Assembly: GCA_017517765.1 (NCBI GenBank) | Contig: JAFWYE010000010.1 | Span: forward strand, 2,432 to 66,431 | Length of the DNA stretch: 64,000 bases | Direction: 5' to 3' | Origin: Bacilli bacterium | GTDB lineage: Bacteria; Bacillota_I; Bacilli_A; RFN20; DUOF01 | In this document: positions 27,366 through 48,005 of the stretch, one piece after another | Layout of the letters: each line of letters opens with the position of its first letter | How positions within the stretch are numbered: position 1 is the stretch's first letter | Notes under the pieces: model-generated | What the model was told of the DNA's origin: nothing | Database searches by the model: none | The model's input: only the letters and a program-made list of their open reading frames with translations | Program-made: the position numbers and the translations under genes

Positions 27366-28642
27366 ATCACAATGTTAATGTCATTAGTGTTAGCCAATTA
27401 AGTTTTTATTTAAAAAATGTTTTAGATAATGATGTTGTTTTAAATAATCTTTTAGTAAAGGGAGAAATAAGCAACTTAAAATATCATCCTAGTGGACACG
27501 TTTACTTTTCGCTTAAAGATCAAGATAGTGTAGTTAAATGTGTCATGTTTTCTAGTTATGCCTCTAAATTGACTGTTACGTTAAAAGAGGGAGAAAAGAT
27601 TATTGTAAATGGAAGTTTAAGCTTATATCCAGCTTCAGGGTCTTATCAAATATATGTAAAAGGATTAGAAAAAGATGGAATAGGTAATTTGTATTTAGAA
27701 TTTGAAAAGCTAAAGAAAGAACTAGAGCAAAAAGGACTATTTTCTCCATTACATAAGAAAAAATTAAAAGAATTCCCTTTTACTATAGGAGTGATTTCAG
27801 GAAAAACAGGTGCTGGCTTAAGAGATATATTAACTATTATTAAAAGAAGATGGCCAATAGCAGAAATTATAGTCTTTCCATGTCTAGTCCAAGGTAATGG
27901 TGCAAGTGAATCTATTATTAGAGCATTAGATGAAGCTAGCAAATTTAACCTTGATTTAACTATCTTGGCTAGAGGTGGGGGTAGTCAAGAGGACTTATGG
28001 TGCTTCAATGATGAAAAATTAGCATATGCAATTTATAATTATAAGACACCTATTATTACAGGAATTGGGCATGAAATAGATTTTACAATAGCAGATTTTG
28101 TAAGTGATTGTAGGGCTCCAACTCCAAGTGGGGCAGCAGAAATGTCAACTCCTGATATTGAAGAGGTCAAAACACTTATAAAAAATTATAATGAAATCAT
28201 AAAGCATAGTTCTAAAAAGCTAGTTATGGATAAGCGAAATATATTACTTGACTATGAATCATATTTAACAAAAGAATATTTTGATAAATTATTAGAAAAC
28301 AAAAGAGAAACACTAAAAGATAGAAAAGAGCAATTAAGAATCAGTTATTTAAACTTTAGTAAGTTTTATAAAGGAGAAATAGTGGATCTTAATAAGACTT
28401 TAAAGGTTGAATATAGTCATTATTTGGCTAATGTAAGAAATATATTAAGCAGTGAAATTAAAATATTAGATAACATATCGCCACTTAAAGTACTTTCTAG
28501 AGGATATAGTTTAGTAAGTGGTGTTGAAGGTGTTATTAACAGTGTAAATAAAGTAAATGTTGATGATGTAGTTAAAATAACTATGTCAGATGGAAAAGTA
28601 TATGCATGTATTACTAGAAAGGATGATAGCAATGGAAAATAA
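27359..28642 (+). CDS. xseA: Exodeoxyribonuclease VII large subunit
   Basis: OB-fold N-terminus (VKGEISNLKYHPSGHVYFSLKD) and ARGGGS.EDLW.FNDE. Confidence 0.9.
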   Translation: MLNHNVNVISVSQLSFYLKNVLDNDVVLNNLLVKGEISNLKYHPSGHVYFSLKDQDSVVKCVMFSSYASKLTVTLKEGEKIIVNGSLSLYPASGSYQIYVKGLEKDGIGNLYLEFEKLKKELEQKGLFSPLHKKKLKEFPFTIGVISGKTGAGLRDILTIIKRRWPIAEIIVFPCLVQGNGASESIIRALDEASKFNLDLTILARGGGSQEDLWCFNDEKLAYAIYNYKTPIITGIGHEIDFTIADFVSDCRAPTPSGAAEMSTPDIEEVKTLIKNYNEIIKHSSKKLVMDKRNILLDYESYLTKEYFDKLLENKRETLKDRKEQLRISYLNFSKFYKGEIVDLNKTLKVEYSHYLANVRNILSSEIKILDNISPLKVLSRGYSLVSGVEGVINSVNKVNVDDVVKITMSDGKVYACITRKDDSNGK

Positions 28643-28847
28643 GACATTTGAAGAAAATTTAGCAAGGCTTAAGGAAGTCGTAAGATTAATTCAAAGTGGT
28701 GAACTTAATTTAGATGAATCTATTGAGGTTTTTAAAGAAGGAATAGAGCTTAGCAAATATTTGGAAGAAAAACTTTCTAGTATTGAAAATAAAGCAATAA
28801 AACTATTTGAAAATAATGAATTAAAAGATTTTAATGGTGAGGAGTAA
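28632..28847 (+). CDS. xseB: Exodeoxyribonuclease VII small subunit
   Basis: [43 protein letters not shown]. This internal ATG overlaps the xseA stop. The longer ORF in the track is an upstream extension. Confidence 0.85.
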
Positions 28848-31777: not shown

Positions 31778-32191
31778 ATGTTAACGCATGAAAGAAAATT
31801 TTTGGCAGCGCTTATTGATATTGCTGTTGTATTAGTACTTACTGTAATATTATATTTATTTGTTCCTAAGCTAGATTATGCTAATACGTTTTTGTTTGCT
31901 CTTATATATGCAATAGTGGCATTCTTATACTTCTTTATATTTATGCTTGTTAGTAAGGATACTACTTTAGGATTAAAAATTATGGAATTAAAGATTTTAA
32001 ATAAAGATTGGAGTAAACCAACACTAAAATCTATTCTTCTAAGAAGTGTTTCATATACAACAATAGTTATATATATATTAAATCTATTATATTTATTTAT
32101 TAATAAAAGTGAAGTTACTTTATTTGATGAATTGAGTGATTCATTTGTGGCTCCTATTGGGGATGCTTATAAGGTGAATAAAAATCAATAA
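31778..32191 (+). CDS. RDD-family membrane protein
   Basis: 137 aa, with the R..A.LID topology of RDD domains and three TM segments. Confidence 0.55.
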   Translation: MLTHERKFLAALIDIAVVLVLTVILYLFVPKLDYANTFLFALIYAIVAFLYFFIFMLVSKDTTLGLKIMELKILNKDWSKPTLKSILLRSVSYTTIVIYILNLLYLFINKSEVTLFDELSDSFVAPIGDAYKVNKNQ

Positions 32192-35808: not shown

Positions 35809-36957
35809 ATGGCACAAAATAAAAGAGACTATTATGAAGTCTTGGGTATAGATAAAAGTGCGGATCAAGATACAATAAAGAAAGCATATAGAACACTTGC
35901 TAAAAAATACCACCCTGATATTAATAAATCTGAGGATGCAGTAGAAAAATTTAAAGAAGTACAAGAGGCTTATGAAATATTAAGTGATGAGAATAAAAAA
36001 TCTCTGTATGATCGTTATGGTCATGCAGGGGTTGATCCTCAAGCTAATGGTGGCTTTGGTGCTGGTGGATTCGGTGGAGCCAATGGTTTTAATTTCGGCG
36101 AATTCGATATGGGAGATATTTTCTCTTCTTTCTTTGGGGGAAGAGGTGCATCTCAGGGCGCTAGACGAACTTCACCTATGCAAGGAGAAGATAAATATCT
36201 TCAAATGGAAATTGACTTCTTAGAGGCGGCTTTTGGATGTAAAAAAGTTATTGCTTTAAATGTTGATGAACGTTGTAACGAGTGTAAGGGAACTGGTGCT
36301 AAAAATGGTACTGAGTTTGAAACTTGTCCTGATTGTCATGGTCATGGTAGTGTAAGAACACAACAAAGAACAATGTTTGGTGTATTTGAAACAACAACTA
36401 CATGTCCAAAATGTAATGGTAAAGGTAAAGTTATAAAAACTAAATGTGATGCATGTCATGGAGAAGGATATAACAGAAGAAAGGTTAATGTTGATGTAAA
36501 TGTACCTGCGGGTATAAATTCTGGACAACAACTTAGAATTGCTGGTAAGGGTGAAAGAGGAATTAATGGAGGTCCTAATGGGGATTTATATATCGAAATT
36601 CTTGTTTCAAACCATAAGCATTTTACTAGAAAAGGTACTGATATATACGTGACAATTCCTATATCATATGTCGATGCTGTTCTTGGATGTAAGATAGATG
36701 TTCCTACAATTCATGGTGATGTAAGTGTTGAGGTGCCATCTGGTATTCAAAATGCACAACAACTTAGAATTAAAGGTAAGGGTATAAAAGACTTAAGAAG
36801 CAATTCGATTGGTGATGAATATATAATTTTGGATATCAAAGTTCCTACTAAGTTATCTAAAGATGAAAAAGAATTATATAAAAAGCTTAAAGGAATTGAA
36901 GAAAAGCAAGGAGATAGTATCTTTGCAAAGTTTAAAAAAGCATTTAAATTAAAATAA
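35809..36957 (+). CDS. dnaJ: Molecular chaperone DnaJ
   Basis: J domain with HPD, a G/F region and four CxxCxGxG repeats. Confidence 0.97.
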
Positions 36958-36986
36958 GAGTTGAGTTTACTTAACTCTTTTTTTTC
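36956..36986 (+). terminator. Rho-independent terminator after dnaJ
   Basis: 10-bp stem aagagttgag / cttaactctt, loop ttta, 8-T run. Confidence 0.8.
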
Positions 36987-37105
36987 TTATTAGTATAATA
37001 AGAATATGTAGTTAATTGTAAAAAATTGTAAATCAGTGTTATTTTTTTAAAATTATAAGTTAATTTATGGTTTAAAATAACAATCTTTTTAAAAGAAAAG
37101 TTCAA

Positions 37106-37137
37106 TTATTGATTTAACAATCAATAAAAAGTATATT
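37106..37137 (+). promoter_or_regulatory. Candidate promoter plus inverted-repeat operator upstream of the four-gene cluster
   Basis: The inverted repeat ttattgat-N6-atcaataa (37106-37127) overlaps a -35 TTGATT (37109-37114). A 17-nt spacer leads to the -10 TATATT (37132-37137). Confidence 0.35.
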
Positions 37138-37146
37138 GGAATATAG

Positions 37147-37857
37147 GTGGAGGGGATTAGTATTAGTAAGAGATATTATTGGAAGAAAATCAGAGTGGCA
37201 TTGCTAATTCTAGCTTTTGCTATTACTTGGTTTTTACTTGTCCTTGCAATTAATGACAATACAAATGGTAATATGACTATTTATGTAGATAAAACTACTG
37301 CTAAAAAAACGCTTAGTTTATCTGAGTCTAGTCAGCTTACTGATCCAACAGGATTATTATATGGTCCATCAATGACTGGGGCTTGGGATCAAGATCCAGG
37401 TGCATTACCAGATTATTCGGATTTAATTGATGGAGACCAAAGTAGATTTGATGGTGCAATTTATGATTCTAGCCCTTCTGTAAATAAATATGTTGGTCAA
37501 AATTATTTGGCTTACACTTTCTATTTGTTTAATAGTGGTAGCGAGTCACTTGATTATTCTATGAAATTTAATATAGAACATGAAGAAAAATCTTTAGGAG
37601 ATGCCATTAGAGTTAGAGTATATGAAGATAGCGAAATTCCTACAACATATGGAAGAGAAGATTCTAGAGCAAGTGACGTATTTACTAATTTTGAAAATTC
37701 TACAACTATATTTACTAGAAACTATGAGGATTTTGAGGTGAATCAAGTCAGAAAATATAGTATTGTAATTTGGATTGATAAAAATGACATAGATACAACT
37801 AATGAAAAGATTGGTGGATCAATTAACTTGTCTATCCAATTTACGGTTACAGGATAG
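37147..37857 (+). CDS. Cluster gene A: signal-anchored or secreted protein (236 aa), paralog of gene B, possibly a TasA/camelysin-like beta-sandwich
   Basis: Basic n-region KRYYWKKIR plus a hydrophobic segment VALLILAFAITWFLLVLAI. The C-terminal motif is KYSIVIWIDKNDIDTTNEKIGGSINLSIQFTV. The start is uncertain because the GTG at 37147 lies inside an SD-like AGGTGGAGGGG. Confidence 0.6.
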   Translation: MEGISISKRYYWKKIRVALLILAFAITWFLLVLAINDNTNGNMTIYVDKTTAKKTLSLSESSQLTDPTGLLYGPSMTGAWDQDPGALPDYSDLIDGDQSRFDGAIYDSSPSVNKYVGQNYLAYTFYLFNSGSESLDYSMKFNIEHEEKSLGDAIRVRVYEDSEIPTTYGREDSRASDVFTNFENSTTIFTRNYEDFEVNQVRKYSIVIWIDKNDIDTTNEKIGGSINLSIQFTVTG

Positions 37858-37870
37858 GGGAGTGAGTGAT

Positions 37871-38698
37871 ATGAATTTTTTGAAAAAGTTATCTCTCTAT
37901 ATATGTATATTTGTTTTGACTATTAGTGTTTCATCTGTTGTTTATGCTGGGTTTACTAGACAATATACTCCTCAAGTAAAATCGTTTGGTATTACTGTAG
38001 CAACTCAAGAAAACATGCTTATCTCTACAACAGGAGATCCTTCAACATTTGCTGATATGGTTCAATTTTCTGATTTGGTTTCTAGTACAGATACTAATAT
38101 CCAACCATTAGAAGCAACAATTGAAGAAACTGGTAATGATTATACTAATCTTATTTTGAAAGATGGCGGAGGAAATACGGTATATACAAGTAAAACATCT
38201 GATGATAACGTTAATGTTAATGAAAAATATATAGAATTCAATTTGTATTTTATTGGAAGTAGCGATATGAATTTATATCTAGGGAATGATAGTGTTAGAA
38301 ACATTATTACATTAGATGAAAGTTCTACTGCTAATTTGAGTTTTACTGCAACTCAAAAGCAAACTTTATTATCTAGTATGAGAATAGCATTTCTAACATA
38401 TGCTACAACTTATCCTGAAGATTATACTGGTATTAATATAAGATATAGCGATTCGCCTGTATCTGCAAATATTTACTCAGTTTCTGCAACTGGAGATACA
38501 TATGAAGATTATATGTTTACTGAAGTTGGATATAACACAACTACTAGAGAAGGAACTATACTTGCTGAAACAATAAAAAATGAAACAACAAAGATAAAAG
38601 TTGTTATTTGGCTTGAAGGTGCCAATTTGGATACATCAATACTTAGCGCAATTGCTGATTTGAAATTTAATATAGCATTTCAAGCTGTTAAAGTTTAG
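37871..38698 (+). CDS. Cluster gene B: secreted protein (275 aa), paralog of gene A
   Basis: The ATG follows the RBS GGGGAG. The signal peptide MNFLKKLSLYICIFVLTISVSSVVYAGFT ends like SipW/TasA-type signal peptides. The C-terminal motif KIKVVIWLEGANLDTSILSAIADLKFNIAFQAV aligns with that of gene A. Confidence 0.65.
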   Translation: MNFLKKLSLYICIFVLTISVSSVVYAGFTRQYTPQVKSFGITVATQENMLISTTGDPSTFADMVQFSDLVSSTDTNIQPLEATIEETGNDYTNLILKDGGGNTVYTSKTSDDNVNVNEKYIEFNLYFIGSSDMNLYLGNDSVRNIITLDESSTANLSFTATQKQTLLSSMRIAFLTYATTYPEDYTGINIRYSDSPVSANIYSVSATGDTYEDYMFTEVGYNTTTREGTILAETIKNETTKIKVVIWLEGANLDTSILSAIADLKFNIAFQAVKV

Positions 38699-38712
38699 AA
38701 GGGAGAATAGAT

Positions 38713-40599
38713 ATGTCTGGATTTACAAAATTTTTTGGAAGAATAATGTCGGTTTTATGGAAAGATATCATAGCTTTCTTTAAGAGCATATTTGATTTTA
38801 TTGTAGGTATATTTCAAAAACTTATTAGTGATTTTTCTTACTATAAGTCAGTTTTTGATTTATATTCACAAGATTTCGATGCTTTAGGATGGATATTATT
38901 TGTTTTATCTATTTTATTAGTTTTAGGTTTATTTGCTCTTTTAGTTTGGGGTATCTATAAGATAAGTAAAAGAAGGTACGTTGCTAAAAGAAAAGTTAAA
39001 GATAAAATTGTTCTTTTAAGAGAAATAGATAAGTTAAATAATAAAGTTATTGACTTGATGGATCAAAGAAGCCAATTATTAGCATTAAAAACAGCTGAAC
39101 TTGGGTATGCTCCAACTAAAGAGGATTTAAAGAAAATTGAAGCAGCTAGAAAAAGAGCACAAGAAGCAATTGATAATCCTGAAGAAAATAAGTATGTTGG
39201 ATTTAAATTTAAAACAACTAAGAAAGGTGCCCCTGTATTTGATAAAAGAGGATTACCTGTTATTGAGCTTGAATATAAGCTTGGAGAAGATGGAAAACCT
39301 TTATTAGATGAAAATAAAAAACCTATACCTTTAATTGAATTTAAAACAGATAAAAAAGGTAAAATTTTATTTGATGCTAATGGATTACCAATTCCTGTTG
39401 ATCCAGTTGCTGCAGAAAATCAAATTGAAGCAGATAAAGCACTTGAAGGTGAAGGAAATCAAGAAGTTGGTGAAGATGGAGAAGCAATTCCTAGTGACTT
39501 AATTGCTAAAGCTAGATTCCCTAAACTTATTCGTATTGACTGGGACTATAGAAACTATGAATTTCCTGGTATGACAGAAGAAGATAAAAAGATGAATTTA
39601 AAAGAACTTGTAGATCGTTTTAGAAATTTCGCTGCAGGAAAATTACATCTATACTATAGTTTTAGAACTTTAGCATTATTCTTCTCTGGAATGGGAACAA
39701 CAAGATTTGCTATTCTTGAGGGTATCTCAGGTACAGGTAAAACTTCACTTCCATATGCATTTGGTAAATTCTTTAGAAATAGAAGTCCTATCGTTGCTGT
39801 TCAACCTTCATGGAAGGATAGATCAGAACTTATTGGATATCTAAATGAGTTTACTAAGAAGTTTAATGAATCTGTTTTCCTTGAAGAATTATATAAAATT
39901 GCTAAGCAAAAGGACCCACATATTTTGGTTCTAGACGAAATGAACTTGGCTCGTATTGAGTATTATTTCGCTGACTTCCTATCTATCATGGAAATGCCTA
40001 GTATGGATGAATGGATTATTGAAATTGTTAATACTGACCTTGAAGGTGACCCTGTGTTACTAGACCATGGTAAGTTCCTTATTCCAAAGAATGTTTGGTT
40101 CCTTGGAACAGCTAATAACGATGACTCTACATTCTCAATTACAGATAAGGTTTATGACCGTGCTATGAGTATGTCACTTAATAAAAAGACTGAAGTATTC
40201 GAACCTGAATGGGATGCAGATAGTATGTATATGGACAATGAGTTCTTTGTACAACTATTTGAAGATGCTAAAGCTAAATATTCAATTAGTGAAGAGGCTT
40301 TATCTAAGTTAGCTGCAATTGATAAATATATGGTACAAAACTTCAAGATTTCTTTCGGTAACCGTATCATGAAACAATTCAGATTATTTGTTCCTTGTTA
40401 TATTGGTTGTGGAGGAGAAGAATATGATGCGCTAGACCACCTTATTACACGTAAGATTTTACATAAACTAGAAGCATTGAATATTTCATTCATTAAGAAT
40501 GAATTAAAAGGATTAATTGTAGAAATTAATAAACAATTTGGAAAAGATGCATTTAGCGATGCAAAAGAATATATTAATGACTTATTGAAACAAGTATAA
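38713..40599 (+). CDS. Cluster gene C: membrane-anchored McrB-family AAA+ NTPase (628 aa)
   Basis: TM segment at aa 57-82, followed by a basic cluster. Next come a coiled coil, three 20-aa repeats, and Walker A GISGTGKT (39721-39744). Walker B and the McrB signature read LVLDEMNLARIEYYFADFLSIME (compare E. coli McrB DEINRANLSKVFGEVMMLME). GTANNDDST corresponds to GTMNTADRS. Confidence 0.7.
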   Translation: MSGFTKFFGRIMSVLWKDIIAFFKSIFDFIVGIFQKLISDFSYYKSVFDLYSQDFDALGWILFVLSILLVLGLFALLVWGIYKISKRRYVAKRKVKDKIVLLREIDKLNNKVIDLMDQRSQLLALKTAELGYAPTKEDLKKIEAARKRAQEAIDNPEENKYVGFKFKTTKKGAPVFDKRGLPVIELEYKLGEDGKPLLDENKKPIPLIEFKTDKKGKILFDANGLPIPVDPVAAENQIEADKALEGEGNQEVGEDGEAIPSDLIAKARFPKLIRIDWDYRNYEFPGMTEEDKKMNLKELVDRFRNFAAGKLHLYYSFRTLALFFSGMGTTRFAILEGISGTGKTSLPYAFGKFFRNRSPIVAVQPSWKDRSELIGYLNEFTKKFNESVFLEELYKIAKQKDPHILVLDEMNLARIEYYFADFLSIMEMPSMDEWIIEIVNTDLEGDPVLLDHGKFLIPKNVWFLGTANNDDSTFSITDKVYDRAMSMSLNKKTEVFEPEWDADSMYMDNEFFVQLFEDAKAKYSISEEALSKLAAIDKYMVQNFKISFGNRIMKQFRLFVPCYIGCGGEEYDALDHLITRKILHKLEALNISFIKNELKGLIVEINKQFGKDAFSDAKEYINDLLKQV

Positions 40600-40620
40600 T
40601 TAACAGTTAGGAGTGTTATA

Positions 40621-42306
40621 ATGGCTACTGATATAATTAAGAAATTTTGGGATAAATTAAGCCGTAGGCATGATAATCTTGGCAGAGATGATTCTTTTTA
40701 CGCACTTTTTTCTAATGGCTTTGATAGAGCTAAGATTAAGCTAGATCATATCACTAGAGTTGTAGTTAGAGAGTATGATGAAGAAACATTAAAGAAAATA
40801 GAAGATGGATTAGTAGCCATAGACACAATTGTAAGAAATCCTAAGCAATTCCTGAAGGTTGATGATGAAATCATCCCAGTAGAACTTGCTAAAAAAGTAA
40901 ATCAAGATTCTATTAAACATTTATCTAGCCATTCTCATCTTATTAATAGAGTTGAAGATGATGGAATGGTTATGCCAACTAGAATTCTTACTGGATTAAA
41001 AGATGACACTATTAATTTGTATGAGAACAGATTTGTTAGATCTCTTATTATTAACTTAGTTACTTTCTTTGATAGAAGATTTAGTGAGTTTTTAGATGAT
41101 GTAGATTTTTCATCTATGACTAAATTAGATAATAAAACTGCTTTTGTAGTAAGAAATTCTCAAATTAATTTAGATTTGCAAATGACTATTGTTACAGATA
41201 ACTTCAATAGAGATGACATTATTCAACTTGATGACTTATTTAGAAGAGTTGCTTGGATTAAGCATACTCTAGCTAAGTTATATGACTCTGATTTTATGAA
41301 GAGGCTTAATGGAGAAAAATTGGTAGTAGGTGAAATAAAAAGAACTAATACTATTAAAGGACACCCTCAATACAATATTTGCTATCATTTATGGAATCAC
41401 ATCATGAACTATCAAGGCATGGTTTTAGATTTTAGGGTAGAAGAAATTCCTATTGTTTTAAGCGATAAATATAAAAAGAAAATGAATAAGGCTTTCATGT
41501 ATCTTCATGGGGCAATTGATGCAGCTCAAAAAGATAATGAAAAATATGTTGAAGCATTAAATAAATCTTTAAATCTTAATATTAAACAGGGTAAAGTTAA
41601 GCTTATCAAGGATACTATTGATAGAAGCCAAGTTGAAGTTGTTAAAGAGGAACTTGATAAAACTATCTTTAAACCCGAACAACAAAAAGCTCTTGATAAA
41701 CTTTATGCAGAAAAAGAAAAACTTGAAACTCAACTTTCAGAGATGAAAGAAAGACATAGAGAAAAAGAAAGAGAAAATAGGGAAATGGAAGCTAATAAGA
41801 AAGAGTTCATTATCCTTAAAGAAAGAGAAATTAAAGATTTATTGAGAATGAAGCAATATGCCAAGGATAGTGCTGTTGTTAGAGCAAGAGATAAGAAAGA
41901 AAAAGAAATCGCTGCTCAAGAAGCTAAAAAAGTTGCGATTGTTAGAAATAAGAAATATGATGTTGTTTCTAAACTTGTTTCTTGGGAAGATAAGAAGAAA
42001 ATTAGTGAAAGAAGTATTGAGAAAGCTAATGGAAGTAAAGTTCTTCTTAATAGAGAAATTAAAGCTGGTATTAGAGTGGAAGAAAATACAGCTGAATTAA
42101 AGAAGATTGAGGCAGATATTATTCAATGGAATAAAACTATTGAAATGGCTAAGAAAAAGCGTGTTATTTTAGAGCAAGAAGAAGAGAGACTACAAGCTCA
42201 AATTGATAAAATTAATGCTTCTAATAAAGCTAGAAGAGAGAAACGTAGAGCAATATTGAAAGAAAAGAATAATCGTTTGATGTCTCAATATGAAGATTTA
42301 AAATAG
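40621..42306 (+). CDS. Cluster gene D: McrC/DUF2357-like N-terminal domain fused to a roughly 220-aa Lys/Glu-rich coiled coil (561 aa)
   Basis: It sits immediately downstream of the McrB-like gene. The LYENRFVRSLIINLVTF motif (41020-41040) resembles the xENRF[VIL] motif of DUF2357/McrC-like partners. No clear PD-(D/E)xK motif is visible. aa 335-561 carry a heptad-like K/E/R-rich sequence. Confidence 0.55.
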   Translation: MATDIIKKFWDKLSRRHDNLGRDDSFYALFSNGFDRAKIKLDHITRVVVREYDEETLKKIEDGLVAIDTIVRNPKQFLKVDDEIIPVELAKKVNQDSIKHLSSHSHLINRVEDDGMVMPTRILTGLKDDTINLYENRFVRSLIINLVTFFDRRFSEFLDDVDFSSMTKLDNKTAFVVRNSQINLDLQMTIVTDNFNRDDIIQLDDLFRRVAWIKHTLAKLYDSDFMKRLNGEKLVVGEIKRTNTIKGHPQYNICYHLWNHIMNYQGMVLDFRVEEIPIVLSDKYKKKMNKAFMYLHGAIDAAQKDNEKYVEALNKSLNLNIKQGKVKLIKDTIDRSQVEVVKEELDKTIFKPEQQKALDKLYAEKEKLETQLSEMKERHREKERENREMEANKKEFIILKEREIKDLLRMKQYAKDSAVVRARDKKEKEIAAQEAKKVAIVRNKKYDVVSKLVSWEDKKKISERSIEKANGSKVLLNREIKAGIRVEENTAELKKIEADIIQWNKTIEMAKKKRVILEQEEERLQAQIDKINASNKARREKRRAILKEKNNRLMSQYEDLK

Positions 42307-42314
42307 GTGATTAT

Positions 42315-43037
42315 ATGCAAGAGTATTTTGCGATTAATAAAATAAATGAAAAATTTATCTTGTCTGAACAAGATAATTTTCATATTGAAAGAGTTTTAAG
42401 AATGAAAAATGGTGATCATATAATAGTCACTTATGAATCTAAAAAATATGATTGTATTATTGATTTTAAAAACGGATTAAATGTTACGTATTTTTGTGAG
42501 TTAGAAGTTTCTAATGAGTTAGAATGTGAGGTTACTTTAATATATGGATTGCCAAAAAAAGATAAATTTGAAATGGTAGTACAAAAAAGTTGTGAACTAG
42601 GTGTTACTTCTATTGTCCCTTTTTTAGCTAAAAGAAGTATTCCTGTACTTGATGATAAAAATACAAATAAGAAGTTAGAAAGATGGAATATGATTGCTAA
42701 AGAAGCATGCGAACAATCAAAAAGAAATGAACTAGTTAAAGTTGTTCAACCAGTGAAATTAAAAGATCTATTAAACTATAAAAGTGAACTTAATTTGATT
42801 GCATATGAAGATTTAAATTGTGTTGGTAGTAGTCATTTATATTCACTTCTTGGAAATAATCCTAAAAGTATTACAATAGTTGTTGGACCTGAGGGTGGAT
42901 TTGATAAAGGTGAAGTAGATTTCTTAAGTGAAAATGGATTTATTTCTGTATCTTTAGGAAAAAGAATACTAAGAAGTGAAACTGCACCTTTATATATGCT
43001 TAGTGTCATTGGATTTATGAATGAGAGGAATAAGTAG
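42315..43037 (+). CDS. rsmE: 16S rRNA (uracil1498-N3)-methyltransferase
   Basis: RsmE layout with a C-terminal GPEGGF...E......G...VSLG.RILR.ETA. Confidence 0.85.
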   Translation: MQEYFAINKINEKFILSEQDNFHIERVLRMKNGDHIIVTYESKKYDCIIDFKNGLNVTYFCELEVSNELECEVTLIYGLPKKDKFEMVVQKSCELGVTSIVPFLAKRSIPVLDDKNTNKKLERWNMIAKEACEQSKRNELVKVVQPVKLKDLLNYKSELNLIAYEDLNCVGSSHLYSLLGNNPKSITIVVGPEGGFDKGEVDFLSENGFISVSLGKRILRSETAPLYMLSVIGFMNERNK

Positions 43038-44351
43038 ATGAAAAGTTTCTTAACTGTAAATTTAGGATGTAAAGTTAATGCATATGAGTGTGATGCTATT
43101 GCTAATATTTTAGAAGATAATGGATATATACTAGATGAGAATAATCCTGATCTTATAGTCATTAACACTTGTAGTGTTACTGCTACAAGCGATAGTAAAT
43201 CTAGGCAAAAAATACGAAGAATAATAAAGGAAAACCCAAATTCAATTATTTGTGTTATGGGATGTTATAGTCAAATTGCTCCAGAAGAAGTAAGTGCAAT
43301 CGAGGGAGTTAGTATTGTTATAGGTACTAGATATAGAGACAGAATTTTAGAATATGCACTTGAATTTGAAAAGAATAAAAAGCAAATTATTAAAATTGAT
43401 AATGCTAGAGAAAATAGTGAGTATGAAAACTTAACTGTATATAATTTTTATGATAATACTAGAGCATACTTAAAAATTCAGGATGGTTGTAATAATTTTT
43501 GTAGTTATTGCATAATTCCCTATACTAGAGGGTTAGTGAGAAGTAAGCCTAGAGAAACGGTATTAAAGGAAGCTCAAATATTAGCAGATAAAGGATACAA
43601 GGAACTTGTATTAACTGGTATTCATACGGGTGGATATGGGTTGGATTTTGAAAATTATAGATTTTATGATTTATTAAAAGACTTAATTAATGATGTGAAA
43701 GGAATTAAAAGGATCAGAATTTCTTCGATTGAAATTAATGAGCTTACAAATGAGGTTATAGAACTTATTAAATCTAATAATATTATTGTTAATCATATAC
43801 ATATTCCTATTCAATCTGGTTGTGATAAAACCCTAAAAGCAATGAATAGAAAGTATAACCTTGCTCAATTTGAAGAAAGAATAAAAATATTAAAAGACAA
43901 TATTGAAGATTTAAGTATTACTACGGATGTAATTGTAGGTTTTCCAAATGAGAGTGATGAGGATTTTGAAATTACTTATAATACACTTAAAAGAATCGGA
44001 TTCTCTAGACTACATGTATTCCCATTTTCATCTAGAAAAGGAACTGTTGCTAGTAACATGAAGAATCAAATTCATGGAGATATCAAAAAAGAACGCGTAA
44101 ATAGGCTAATTTTGCTTTCTAAGGAGCTAGAGAAGGAATATTACTCTAAGCATCTAAATAAGTCTGTAGAGGTCTTATTTGAGGAAAATAAGGAGGGTTA
44201 TTATAAGGGACTTACCACTAATTATTTGAAAGTTAGAGTTAAGAGCGATGAAAATGTTTCCAAATGCTTTAAACAAGTTAAACTAAATAAGATAATAGAT
44301 GTAGGAATGGACTATGAAATAGAGGGGGAAATTATAGATGAATTATGCTAG
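43038..44351 (+). CDS. mtaB: tRNA threonylcarbamoyladenosine methylthiotransferase MtaB
   Basis: UPF0004 N-terminal domain, radical SAM motif CNNFCSYCIIP, and a TRAM domain. It follows rsmE as in Bacillus (yqeU-yqeV). Confidence 0.85.
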   Translation: MKSFLTVNLGCKVNAYECDAIANILEDNGYILDENNPDLIVINTCSVTATSDSKSRQKIRRIIKENPNSIICVMGCYSQIAPEEVSAIEGVSIVIGTRYRDRILEYALEFEKNKKQIIKIDNARENSEYENLTVYNFYDNTRAYLKIQDGCNNFCSYCIIPYTRGLVRSKPRETVLKEAQILADKGYKELVLTGIHTGGYGLDFENYRFYDLLKDLINDVKGIKRIRISSIEINELTNEVIELIKSNNIIVNHIHIPIQSGCDKTLKAMNRKYNLAQFEERIKILKDNIEDLSITTDVIVGFPNESDEDFEITYNTLKRIGFSRLHVFPFSSRKGTVASNMKNQIHGDIKKERVNRLILLSKELEKEYYSKHLNKSVEVLFEENKEGYYKGLTTNYLKVRVKSDENVSKCFKQVKLNKIIDVGMDYEIEGEIIDELC

Positions 44352-45280: not shown

Positions 45281-45286
45281 TAAGTG

Positions 45287-47174: not shown

Positions 47175-48005
47175 ATGCAAGATAAAATAAATGTAATGGT
47201 GTGCGATGGTAACCAAACTCAAAAAGAAGAGTTAGAGAAAAGAATGAGTAGTATTACAAGCATTAACTATCTAGGGTTTTATAGCGATGGTAAAGAAGTT
47301 GTCGAAGTATTAGAAAATAATAGAGTAGATCTTTTAATTATAGATGTATTATTAACTGGGATTGATGGTTTTGAAATCATAAGAAGAATTAAAAATGATT
47401 ATAATAAATATAATGTAAATAGAATTGTTGTAACTACTGCCATTGTAAATGATAGTATATATTCATTTTTCAATACTTATGGTATTGATCTTATGATTAT
47501 GAAACCATATGATTTAGATTCATTGTTCATGAAGTTAGAGCATTTAACTGCTCATGATTTTACTAATTCTAATAGATGCATTGTAAATAATACTGTTAAT
47601 AGCGATGGCATCACAGAAAATAAATTAATGAATGATGTAACTTACATATTACACGAGATAGGAATTCCTGCTCATATTAAAGGATATAACTATTTAAGAA
47701 GTGCAATTATAGAAATGTTCTTTTCTGAGGGTGGGATGAATGGAAGAATTACTAAAGAGTTATATCCTAATATTGCAAAGAAATATACTTCTACCTCATC
47801 AAGAGTAGAAAGAGCAATTAGACATGCAATAGAAGTTGCATGGAGTAGAGGAAATATTGATGTTATTGATTCAATATTTGGATATACAGTAAGTGCTTAT
47901 AAAGCTAAACCTACTAACTCTGAATTTATTTCAATGATTACTGATAAACTTAAATTATCATATTCGTCTAAAGAGAGTGATAAATACATTAAAGCTATTT
48001 GCTAA
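47175..48005 (+). CDS. spo0A: Sporulation master regulator Spo0A
   Basis: Receiver domain ([18 protein letters not shown]) plus the Spo0A-specific C-terminus [19 protein letters not shown]...[18 protein letters not shown]. Confidence 0.9.

Follow-up and report, generated by a model that had tools for sequence, protein, structure and literature searches.

A nuclease-free McrBC-like NTPase pair encoded with secreted beta-sandwich paralogs in a Bacilli bacterium: a probable reduced CoCoPALM locus

A 64,000-nucleotide (nt) stretch of contig JAFWYE010000010.1 from a Bacilli bacterium (hereafter, the window) carries four tightly packed, co-directional genes, A to D, between a terminator 3' of dnaJ and the start of rsmE (Table 1). 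An earlier description of this cluster, made from the letters of the window without database searches (the sequence-only reading), was followed up computationally; its coordinates and its intergenic gaps, of 13 nt between A and B, 14 nt between B and C, 21 nt between C and D and 8 nt between D and rsmE, were reproduced, and good ribosome-binding sites were found upstream of B, C and D. A to D are real genes: homologs of every one of them are numerous and clearly conserved. They encode two homologous exported beta-sandwich proteins, a membrane-anchored nucleoside triphosphatase (NTPase) of the McrB family, and a McrC-like partner without a nuclease. The same architecture was named CoCoPALM by Bell et al. 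2024 (PMC11090510, section 7), in passing and in three sentences, with the analysis deferred to a later paper; the claim of the sequence-only reading that no such system had been described therefore falls.

The NTPase pair and its secreted partners

As a single sequence, C gave weak matches to the AAA_5 and McrB models. When a profile of the C family (40 sequences) was searched against the PDB, the sole sequence matches were to E. coli McrB (6HZ4/6UT6), at E ~1e-5, and hhalign aligned C with E. coli McrB at 96% over 270 columns. Among the 148 best C representatives from an exhaustive search, the signature motif reads N-x-D-[D/E] (e.g. NRDE, NKDE, NQDE); the conserved aspartate at position 3 places the family in the branch that Bell et al. 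call 'NxD'. An NxxD reading, obtained from a gapless HMMER alignment of C (NNDD) with E. coli McrB (NTAD), was rejected as an artefact of the second aspartate.

Hydropathy analysis revealed one hydrophobic segment in C (residues 53-86). The 59 aa ahead of the transmembrane helix form a conserved amphipathic segment rich in Phe, the N-terminus being occupied in 80 of 81 homologs, and the helix is followed by a basic cluster (residues 83-98; sequence after the helix, KISKRRYVAKRKVKDK); according to the positive-inside rule, the NTPase side of the protein should be the cytoplasm. The short heptad-like helix that comes next is the counterpart of the 'FtsB-like' coiled coil in the CoCoPALM description; it went unflagged in a crude heptad scan, and homology of C to FtsB/DivIC found no support from the Pfam DivIC model, which was unmatched. 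Between this coiled coil and the NTPase lies a repeat insertion present in only three of the 81 homologs, namely the window and the related loci L001 and L002. Library scans gave no match to a DNA-binding reader domain in the N-terminal 260 aa, a region that consists of the amphipathic segment, the transmembrane helix, the coiled coil and the repeat linker.

D matches DUF2357, the N-terminal domain of McrC, above the Pfam cut-off (Table 1), as do 26 of the 36 members of its family. Only H100, L101, Y134, E135, N136, R137 and T242 are invariant in the family alignment, and H100-L101 and Y134-E-N-R137 fall within the DUF2357 match. Nuclease models matched none of the 36 members, and the alignment contains neither conserved D...(D/E)xK columns nor an acidic-Lys triad. 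No hydrophobic segment was found in D by hydropathy, and its charged C-terminal tail is predicted to be helical, as a coiled coil or as one isolated alpha-helix. The length of this tail is highly variable; D homologs range from 352 to 2331 aa, and those of variant-2 loci, at ~370 aa, are tail-less. The D family exhibited no similarity to E. coli McrC (hhalign 0.1% probability), so that the link to McrC is carried by DUF2357 alone, and the D profile retrieved only low-complexity coiled-coil matches from the PDB. In canonical McrBC, the N-terminal domain of McrC inserts into the McrB hexamer, whose hydrolysis it stimulates.

The A and B families are homologous (hhalign 98.8%, E 1.4e-16), and each protein has one hydrophobic segment (residues 13-39 in A, 3-29 in B). 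In A, an N-terminal transmembrane or signal-anchor helix spans residues ~17-34 and has no aromatic-P2' SipW motif. B, in contrast, has a SipW-type signal peptide with predicted cleavage at VVYA26/G27-F28 (read ...VVYA/GFTRQ), which would place a Phe at P2'; in TasA, the Phe at P2' is the reason that SipW is required (PMC10269814). The mature N-terminus of B (FTRQYTPQVKSFGITV) is highly conserved, with F28, R30, Q31, P34, V36 and F39 invariant. TIGR04088 ('SipW-dependent-type signal peptide', cognate_SipW) was matched by 9 of 63 members of the family that contains B (designated f3; hhalign 99.3%), with a best E of 3e-5, the window's B itself being below detection.

AlphaFold2 models consist of an N-terminal helix followed by all-beta structure, both for A (helix 8-37; mean confidence score pLDDT 83) and for B (pLDDT 75). 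In Foldseek searches of the PDB, A matched FimA, the TasA fibre (8AUR) and AbpA (7UEG) at probabilities of 0.97-0.99 with TM-scores of ~0.3 (8AUR: probability 0.98, E 1e-3, TM 0.33; 7UEG: probability 0.97), and the top match of B was AbpA (7UEG) at a probability of 0.66. The A profile gave a borderline match to AbpX in the PDB (E 0.064), and PDB searches with the B, f3/B and broad A profiles returned nothing meaningful; scans of Pfam, NCBIfam, PADLOC and PHROGs yielded no usable matches for A or B.

The results for the individual proteins thus agree with the sequence-only reading, which had described C as McrB-like (here recovered by the family profile and hhalign) and membrane-anchored (a single transmembrane helix, then a basic cluster), D as McrC/DUF2357-like with a coiled coil of 220 aa and no nuclease (here a charged helical tail, DUF2357 above its cut-off and no nuclease match in the family), and A and B as extracytoplasmic paralogs.

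The GTG start listed for A (37147) falls inside a strong Shine-Dalgarno-like sequence, AGGTGGAGGGG (window 37145-37164), with GGAGG at 37149-37153. Orthologs of A start with MSKRFYWKKIR; in the alignment, this start falls on an ATT codon of the window (37162), 8 nt past the GGAGG, and A may initiate at this rare ATT.

Table 1. Window coordinates of the cluster genes, their domains and motifs, and the adjoining features
Feature	Position	Strand	Basis or remark
Gene A	37147-37857	+	Open reading frame (ORF) list
Gene B	37871-38698	+	ATG at 37871 backed by a ribosome-binding site; the ORF itself opens at 37802
Gene C	38713-40599	+	628 aa; membrane-anchored McrB-family (NxD-branch) NTPase
C, single transmembrane helix, residues ~60-82	38890-38958	+	Hydropathy
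C, short heptad-like helix, residues ~96-130, KDKIVLLREIDKLNNKVIDLMDQRSQLLALKTAEL	38998-39102	+	Sequence inspection; kept in all homologs
C, insertion, residues ~141-250 (~110 aa), cytoplasmic linker	39133-39462	+	About six K/D-x-x-G-x-P-[VIL] repeats
C, AAA+ NTPase module, McrB-like, residues ~262-628	39496-40596	+	PDB profile search, hhalign
C, Walker A (GxSGTGKT), G337-T344	39721-39744	+	Invariant, 81 homologs
C, Walker B (LDExN), L407-N411	39931-39945	+	Invariant, 81 homologs
C, signature N468-N-D470-D471	40114-40125	+	N-x-D-D invariant, 81 homologs
Gene D	40621-42306	+	561 aa; soluble McrC-like partner without nuclease
D, DUF2357 (McrC N-terminal domain), residues 64-171	40810-41133	+	Pfam E 5.8e-9, 36 bits against a cut-off of 23.3
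D, C-terminal charged helical tail, ~220 aa	41641-42303	+	48% E/K/R/Q, 3 Pro+Gly
Intrinsic-terminator-like hairpin 3' of dnaJ	36956-36979	+	10-bp stem, T-run; upstream edge of the A-D transcription unit
Leader 5' of A, AT-rich, 190 nt, sigma-70-like promoter candidates	36971-37137	+	Consensus matches only
rsmE-mtaB	42315-44351	+	Begins 8 nt past D, no intervening terminator

Related loci and the clade of the window

A genome scan confirmed relatives of C in at least 571 of 600 candidate stretches, from species-level genomes of one broad lineage, and the exhaustive search for C returned 713 clusters at 50% identity (E<=1e-30). Among the matches listed, carriers of C were mostly Acholeplasmatales, Izemoplasmatales, Coproplasma and unnamed or gut 'Bacilli' metagenome-assembled genomes; cultured species are among them, namely Paracholeplasma vituli (L016), Acholeplasma granularum ATCC 19168 (L029) and A. 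oculi ATCC 27350 (L070). ORFs were called and clustered into families (f0, f3 and so on) in 80 related loci (numbered L001 onwards), with the adjacency of D counted over 76 of them and partner genes over the 43 that were fully covered.

D is the direct neighbour of C in 68 of 76 loci, and the commonest gene order is GGDEF-EAL, transmembrane GGDEF-EAL, A, f3, f3, f0, C, D, f0. The f0 family scores above the TIGR02228 cut-off, which identifies it as an archaeal/SipW-type signal peptidase I, and f4 comprises GGDEF+EAL proteins. A SipW-like peptidase lies no more than 9 kb from C in 40 of the 43 loci; small secreted families were likewise found in 40, and GGDEF-EAL proteins in 23. Typical loci contain, besides A to D, one or two SipW-type peptidases, extra secreted paralogs and GGDEF-EAL proteins, and the four genes of the sequence-only reading do not amount to the full system. 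Some loci swap in other small secreted families or giant repeat proteins. Most of these accessory families either show homology to B/f3 over the full length or have the T[FY]A[WY]F signal region in common with it, the links to B/f3 by hhalign having probabilities of 92-99%.

Of the SipW-like peptidases with a C-terminal transmembrane helix, 97 of 121 extend beyond it by a tail of at least 25 aa. These tails (median 43 aa, ~57% charged) are helical and contain a recurrent EKERIRxELLEEL motif (e.g. L016:6784-7524 and L016:11180-11845), and they share their side of the membrane with the coiled coil of C and the tail of D; such tails suggest helical coupling to C/D.

The closest relatives of the window are L001 and L083, whose C proteins are 84% and 82% identical to that of the window, respectively, and L002 and L081, at 72% and 70%. 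L001 is arranged A-B-C-D-rsmE and L083 dnaJ-RmuC-A-B-C-D-rsmE; L002 reads dnaJ-...-A-B-SipW-C-D-(two genes)-rsmE, and L081 has the order A-B-SipW-C-D-(two genes)-rsmE in a different upstream context. The SipW-type gene between B and C (L002:7467-8000, L081:9464-10000) is cleanly absent from the window, L001 and L083, and in the window a 14-nt gap (38699-38712) takes its place. Its presence in the 70-72% orthologs, but not in the window, L001 or L083, indicates a recent loss of the peptidase gene in the sub-clade of the window. Within this SipW-less clade, identities are 81-97% for C, 57-99% for B and 55-100% for A.

The 'prmA slot' of the dnaK operon, in which the sequence-only reading had placed the cluster, is not a property of the system. 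The order A-B-C-D does recur in relatives (L001 and L083, and, with SipW, L002 and L081), but the dnaJ/rsmE setting is not general: this position is shared only by the nearest relatives L001, L002 and L083, L081 retains the rsmE side only, and the other ~76 loci lie elsewhere. The junction with dnaJ is not conserved; the rsmE-mtaB junction is kept in L001, L083, L081 and L002 (in the last two with two additional genes intervening), within this clade only. A functional meaning of the dnaK-operon position was rejected, as the position is not kept beyond the closest relatives; the window locus is one reduced instance of its class, and its location in the dnaK operon is incidental. In L083, an RmuC-family gene (L083:7082-8344) lies between dnaJ and A, which marks the dnaJ-to-A interval as a variable spot in this lineage.

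Class assignment, proposed function and alternatives

CoCoPALM was described as an NxD GTPase fused to an FtsB-like transmembrane helix and coiled coil, with McrB and McrC homologs that are usually coiled-coil proteins and with signal-peptidase or pilus-assembly partners (PMC11090510); a literature search for a follow-up returned only the original paper and its preprint, and the eLife supplements available as text list no CoCoPALM entries. The window shares with this description an NxD-branch McrB-like GTPase with an N-terminal transmembrane helix and coiled coil, a DUF2357 McrC homolog with a long helical tail, the absence of a nuclease and, in its orthologs and related loci, the linkage to a signal peptidase. 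A linked peptidase, present in L002, L081 and 40 of the 43 related loci, is the one feature of the class that the window itself lacks; it departs from the description further in the 110-aa repeat insertion in C, the dnaJ/rsmE setting and the Spo0A-bearing Bacillota host. By descent, the locus is very probably a CoCoPALM member, and because it has no linked peptidase it was filed as a reduced variant. Outside the published description, and new here, are the secreted SipW-dependent beta-sandwich paralogs as cognate substrates, the linkage to cyclic di-GMP (c-di-GMP) through GGDEF-EAL proteins, the charged peptidase tails, the natural 'minimal' four-gene variant and the identification of cultured carriers; the class, already named, is experimentally accessible in cultured Acholeplasma.

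A to D are not a DNA restriction system. Canonical McrBC (E. coli K-12; 6HZ4, 6UT6) has the AAA+ GTPase fold and motifs, the McrC N-domain family and the adjacent B-then-C gene order in common with the window; in the window, however, a transmembrane helix and coiled coil replace the DNA reader, the signature is NxD rather than NxxD, and D has no PD-(D/E)xK, and on these three grounds the pair is not canonical McrBC. CoCoNuTs (types I-III) belong to the same NxD McrB-like branch and also have coiled-coil fusions, along with a McrC homolog that is often without an active PD-(D/E)xK, but they are cytoplasmic, and RNA-binding domains and nucleases (HEPN or others) invariably accompany them, whereas the window locus has a membrane anchor and secreted partners, and library scans found no nuclease domain (HEPN, PD-(D/E)xK, PLD) in A to D or in conserved neighbours. 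Membrane-bound and nuclease-free, it is not a CoCoNuT either.

TasA-type loci (tapA-sipW-tasA, C. perfringens sipW-bsaABC, archaeal AbpA/AbpX/Tafi) resemble the window in their beta-sandwich subunits and aromatic-P2' signal peptides, and resemble the window or its relatives in a dedicated TIGR02228 signal peptidase I (in the relatives), paralogous subunits with a putative anchor, and c-di-GMP genes nearby; at the level of the fold, there are Foldseek matches, of low TM-score, to the TasA fibre (A) and AbpA (A and B). In the TasA/Abp literature, the fibre genes of TasA-superfamily loci are usually paired with a TIGR02228 signal peptidase I, anchors and second-messenger genes. None of these loci, as described, contains a McrBC-like NTPase pair, and neither a SipW-type peptidase nor profile homology to Peptidase_M73/TasA could be demonstrated in the window; a literature search for McrB together with TasA retrieved strain genotypes only. 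Type IV pili and Tad systems (PilB/TadA) are a functional analogy only: in them, a cytoplasmic hexameric NTPase at the membrane serves a filament outside the cell, a signal or prepilin peptidase is dedicated to it, and control by c-di-GMP is frequent. Their secretion ATPases are unrelated to the McrB AAA+ proteins, their class III pilin signals are cut cytoplasmically, and they need a polytopic platform protein; none of these features occurs in the window locus.

We read the locus as a CoCoPALM member in which a nuclease-free, McrBC-derived NTPase pair would be tied to a Sec/SipW-dependent surface-fibre system, and put the probability of this reading as a whole at about 0.6. C, with intact Walker A, Walker B and NxD(D) motifs, is tethered to the membrane by one transmembrane helix and a short coiled coil; D combines the McrC N-domain with a long charged helix; and A and B are exported, B with a SipW-type signal. 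B would be the subunit that polymerises into a donor-strand fibre of the TasA/Abp type. A, which is single-copy, first in the gene array and equipped with an N-terminal signal-anchor, would serve as the membrane-proximal anchor or initiator of that fibre. A C hexamer with D could form a membrane-embedded cytoplasmic platform that uses GTP/ATP hydrolysis to build, anchor or release the fibre. In complete systems this platform probably acts via the charged cytoplasmic tails of the SipW-type peptidases, which would fit the model for C. perfringens BsaA, where subunits polymerise while signal-anchored and SipW cleaves afterwards (PMC11580942), and the GGDEF-EAL proteins would supply upstream control. 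In the window's lineage, which has no peptidase at the locus, processing may fall to a peptidase encoded elsewhere, or the system may be partly degenerate. A role in TasA-like fibre assembly or anchoring is the best supported of those that the sequence-only reading had suggested; for the fibre-machine function of A to D taken by itself, we consider the odds to be even.

To our knowledge, GTPases of the McrBC family are known only as nucleic-acid-targeting defence motors, and TasA-type fibres are thought to self-assemble extracellularly without an energy source. That the two are physically linked, and that this linkage is conserved across hundreds of species (cultivable Acholeplasma among them), suggests either an energy-dependent step in the assembly, anchoring or release of fibres or a new envelope-coupled conflict system; an energy-dependent step would be especially relevant to wall-less bacteria, which cannot anchor fibres in peptidoglycan. 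More tentatively, and with a likelihood that we place nearer one in three, the McrBC chassis (a hexameric GTPase with a pore-plugging activator) may have been exapted as the cytoplasmic engine or regulator of a Sec/SipW-dependent, TasA-like donor-strand fibre, acting via coiled-coil contacts with the peptidase tails and under c-di-GMP control; such NTP-coupled surface-filament machinery would be of a new class, with a wide distribution among gut Bacilli and the wall-less Acholeplasmatales and Izemoplasmatales. If that is true, the peptidase-less version in the window would show the motor to be capable of working with the signal-anchored A directly.

A number of observations weigh against the reading of the locus as a fibre-linked CoCoPALM member. 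The Foldseek TM-scores of A and B are just 0.2-0.4, so that a TasA/AbpA-like fold is not firmly assignable. Peptidase_M73 (PF12389) was matched by none of A, B or f3, with only scattered Pfam noise among the 63 f3/B members; the A and f3/B profiles aligned with B. subtilis TasA (a hand-entered query sequence) in the signal peptides only, at a non-significant 3% probability; and homology of A, B or f3 to TasA is not established. When 123 SipW-like proteins from related loci were used as tblastn queries, no SipW-type peptidase was found in the 64-kb window. C occurs without a recognisable D in eight of the 76 loci (L019, L038, L052, L055, L062, L066, L075 and L079). The accessory genes are strongly variable and some genomes have two loci, a pattern also seen in conflict systems, and the best library match of C is a PADLOC defence candidate, PDC-M26A. 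McrBC relatives are overwhelmingly defence systems; we know of no TasA, Abp or chaperone-usher-type donor-strand fibre that needs a cytoplasmic NTPase, which leaves the proposed motor without precedent. Members of the CoCoPALM type are known from sequence alone.

One alternative is an envelope-linked anti-phage or conflict system akin to CoCoNuTs, in which the secreted proteins would be surface sensors or decoys and the NTPase pair would signal an abortive response, with the effector encoded elsewhere or with perturbation of the membrane. The McrBC ancestry is in keeping with this, as are an NxD branch that also contains the CoCoNuTs, the strong diversification of accessory genes, with giant surface proteins in some loci and two loci in some genomes, and the RmuC gene directly 5' of A in L083. 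C matches PDC-M26A at 4e-38, and its homologs match at ~1e-37, but the match is confined to the NTPase core, with ~125 residues of the 724-position profile aligned in the best stretch; no other PADLOC model or PDC-M26 component matched D, A, B/f3 or the SipW-like partners, and a search for literature on PDC-M26 found none. Such a system appears unlikely: library scans of A to D and their conserved partners found no effector domain, be it a nuclease, HEPN or toxin, the partners comprise c-di-GMP enzymes and a signal peptidase with its cognate substrates (the signature of a biofilm or surface structure), composition is native-like with no mobility genes, and the distribution is broad and lineage-wide, not patchy.

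A secretion or quality-control module, in which an AAA+ ring with D as adaptor would extract, unfold or gate A, B, their paralogs or SipW in the manner of FtsH or Cdc48 without forming a polymer, would likewise make use of the intact AAA+ chemistry motifs of C, its transmembrane tether and its conserved N-terminal segment, which may be extracytoplasmic. The charged helices of the SipW and D tails, both on the cytoplasmic side, and the position of the window locus beside the dnaK chaperone operon would suit such a module. That position, however, is not kept beyond the nearest relatives; threading of polypeptides is not known for rings of the McrB type, and it is established from the McrBC structures (6HZ4, 6UT6) that McrC fills the pore. 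As the several paralogous substrates per locus and the fibre-subunit fold matches also fit a polymer better, we judge this explanation improbable.

Least likely of all is that the four-gene locus became a non-functional or shifted relic after the loss of SipW, kept by read-through into rsmE-mtaB, as might be argued from the presence of SipW in the 70-72% orthologs and its absence from the 82-100% clade, and from the lack of a canonical ATG start in A, given that none of the four ORFs is disrupted and each is still conserved throughout the SipW-less clade, that the signal, cleavage motif and mature N-terminus of B are invariant, and that all catalytic motifs of C are intact.

Genomic setting and locus variants

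A to D are flanked upstream by lepA-hemN-RDD-hrcA-grpE-dnaK-dnaJ and downstream by rsmE-mtaB-deoC-rpsU-hflX. No terminator was predicted between D and rsmE, the next being at 45286; from this and the 8-nt gap, rsmE-mtaB is probably co-transcribed with A to D, but it is context and stands outside the functional system. In the leader, promoter candidates were found at 36971-36999 (TTAACT-17-TATAAT) and 37109-37137 (TTGATT-17-TATATT), the number of candidates being not above shuffled expectation. The GC content of the cluster is 0.30, and both GC and GC at third codon positions agree with the flanks; no tRNAs, integrase or mobility genes, or compositional signs of recent horizontal transfer were detected at the locus. 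In agreement with the earlier observation that no PrmA-like ORF is present, there was no methyltransferase match among A to D, and a PrmA-type S-adenosylmethionine motif was absent from the 64-kb window by regular-expression search only.

An ORF at window 47175-48005 (+) matches Pfam Spo0A_C (8e-41) and has a receiver domain, which identifies the host as a Spo0A-bearing member of the Bacillota; the host is probably walled, and most carriers of C-D are wall-less Acholeplasmatales and Izemoplasmatales. At window 28142-28847 (+), two short ORFs lie 5' of lepA, the first of which (166 aa) matches only positions 168-313, the C-terminal half, of Pfam Exonuc_VII_L; a split or truncated xseA, or a mis-called start, may account for this. 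The gene between hemN and hrcA (window 31778-32191, +) encodes an RDD-family membrane protein and is also present in L002 and L083.

Two C-D loci of differing architecture were found in each of several genomes (contigs CAZRJV01, JAHISX01 and DOYO01), and multiple CoCoPALM-type systems can therefore coexist in one cell. In the loci without D, C is followed by small proteins with SipW signals (f12, f14, f15) and by a giant protein of ~1950 aa (f7); f12 was considered as a replacement for D and ruled out (hhalign 0.1%). A third type of locus (L070:264-6710 in Acholeplasma oculi; also L005 and L043) has, ahead of C-D, a protein of ~2100 aa in which tandem beta-sandwich repeats are followed by a C-terminal transmembrane anchor, together with one transmembrane GGDEF/EAL-like protein, and is without SipW or small subunits. 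About 3 kb 3' of the A. oculi locus, an IS200/IS605-like pair of TnpA and TnpB genes was recognised from sequence features (L070:14374-15904).

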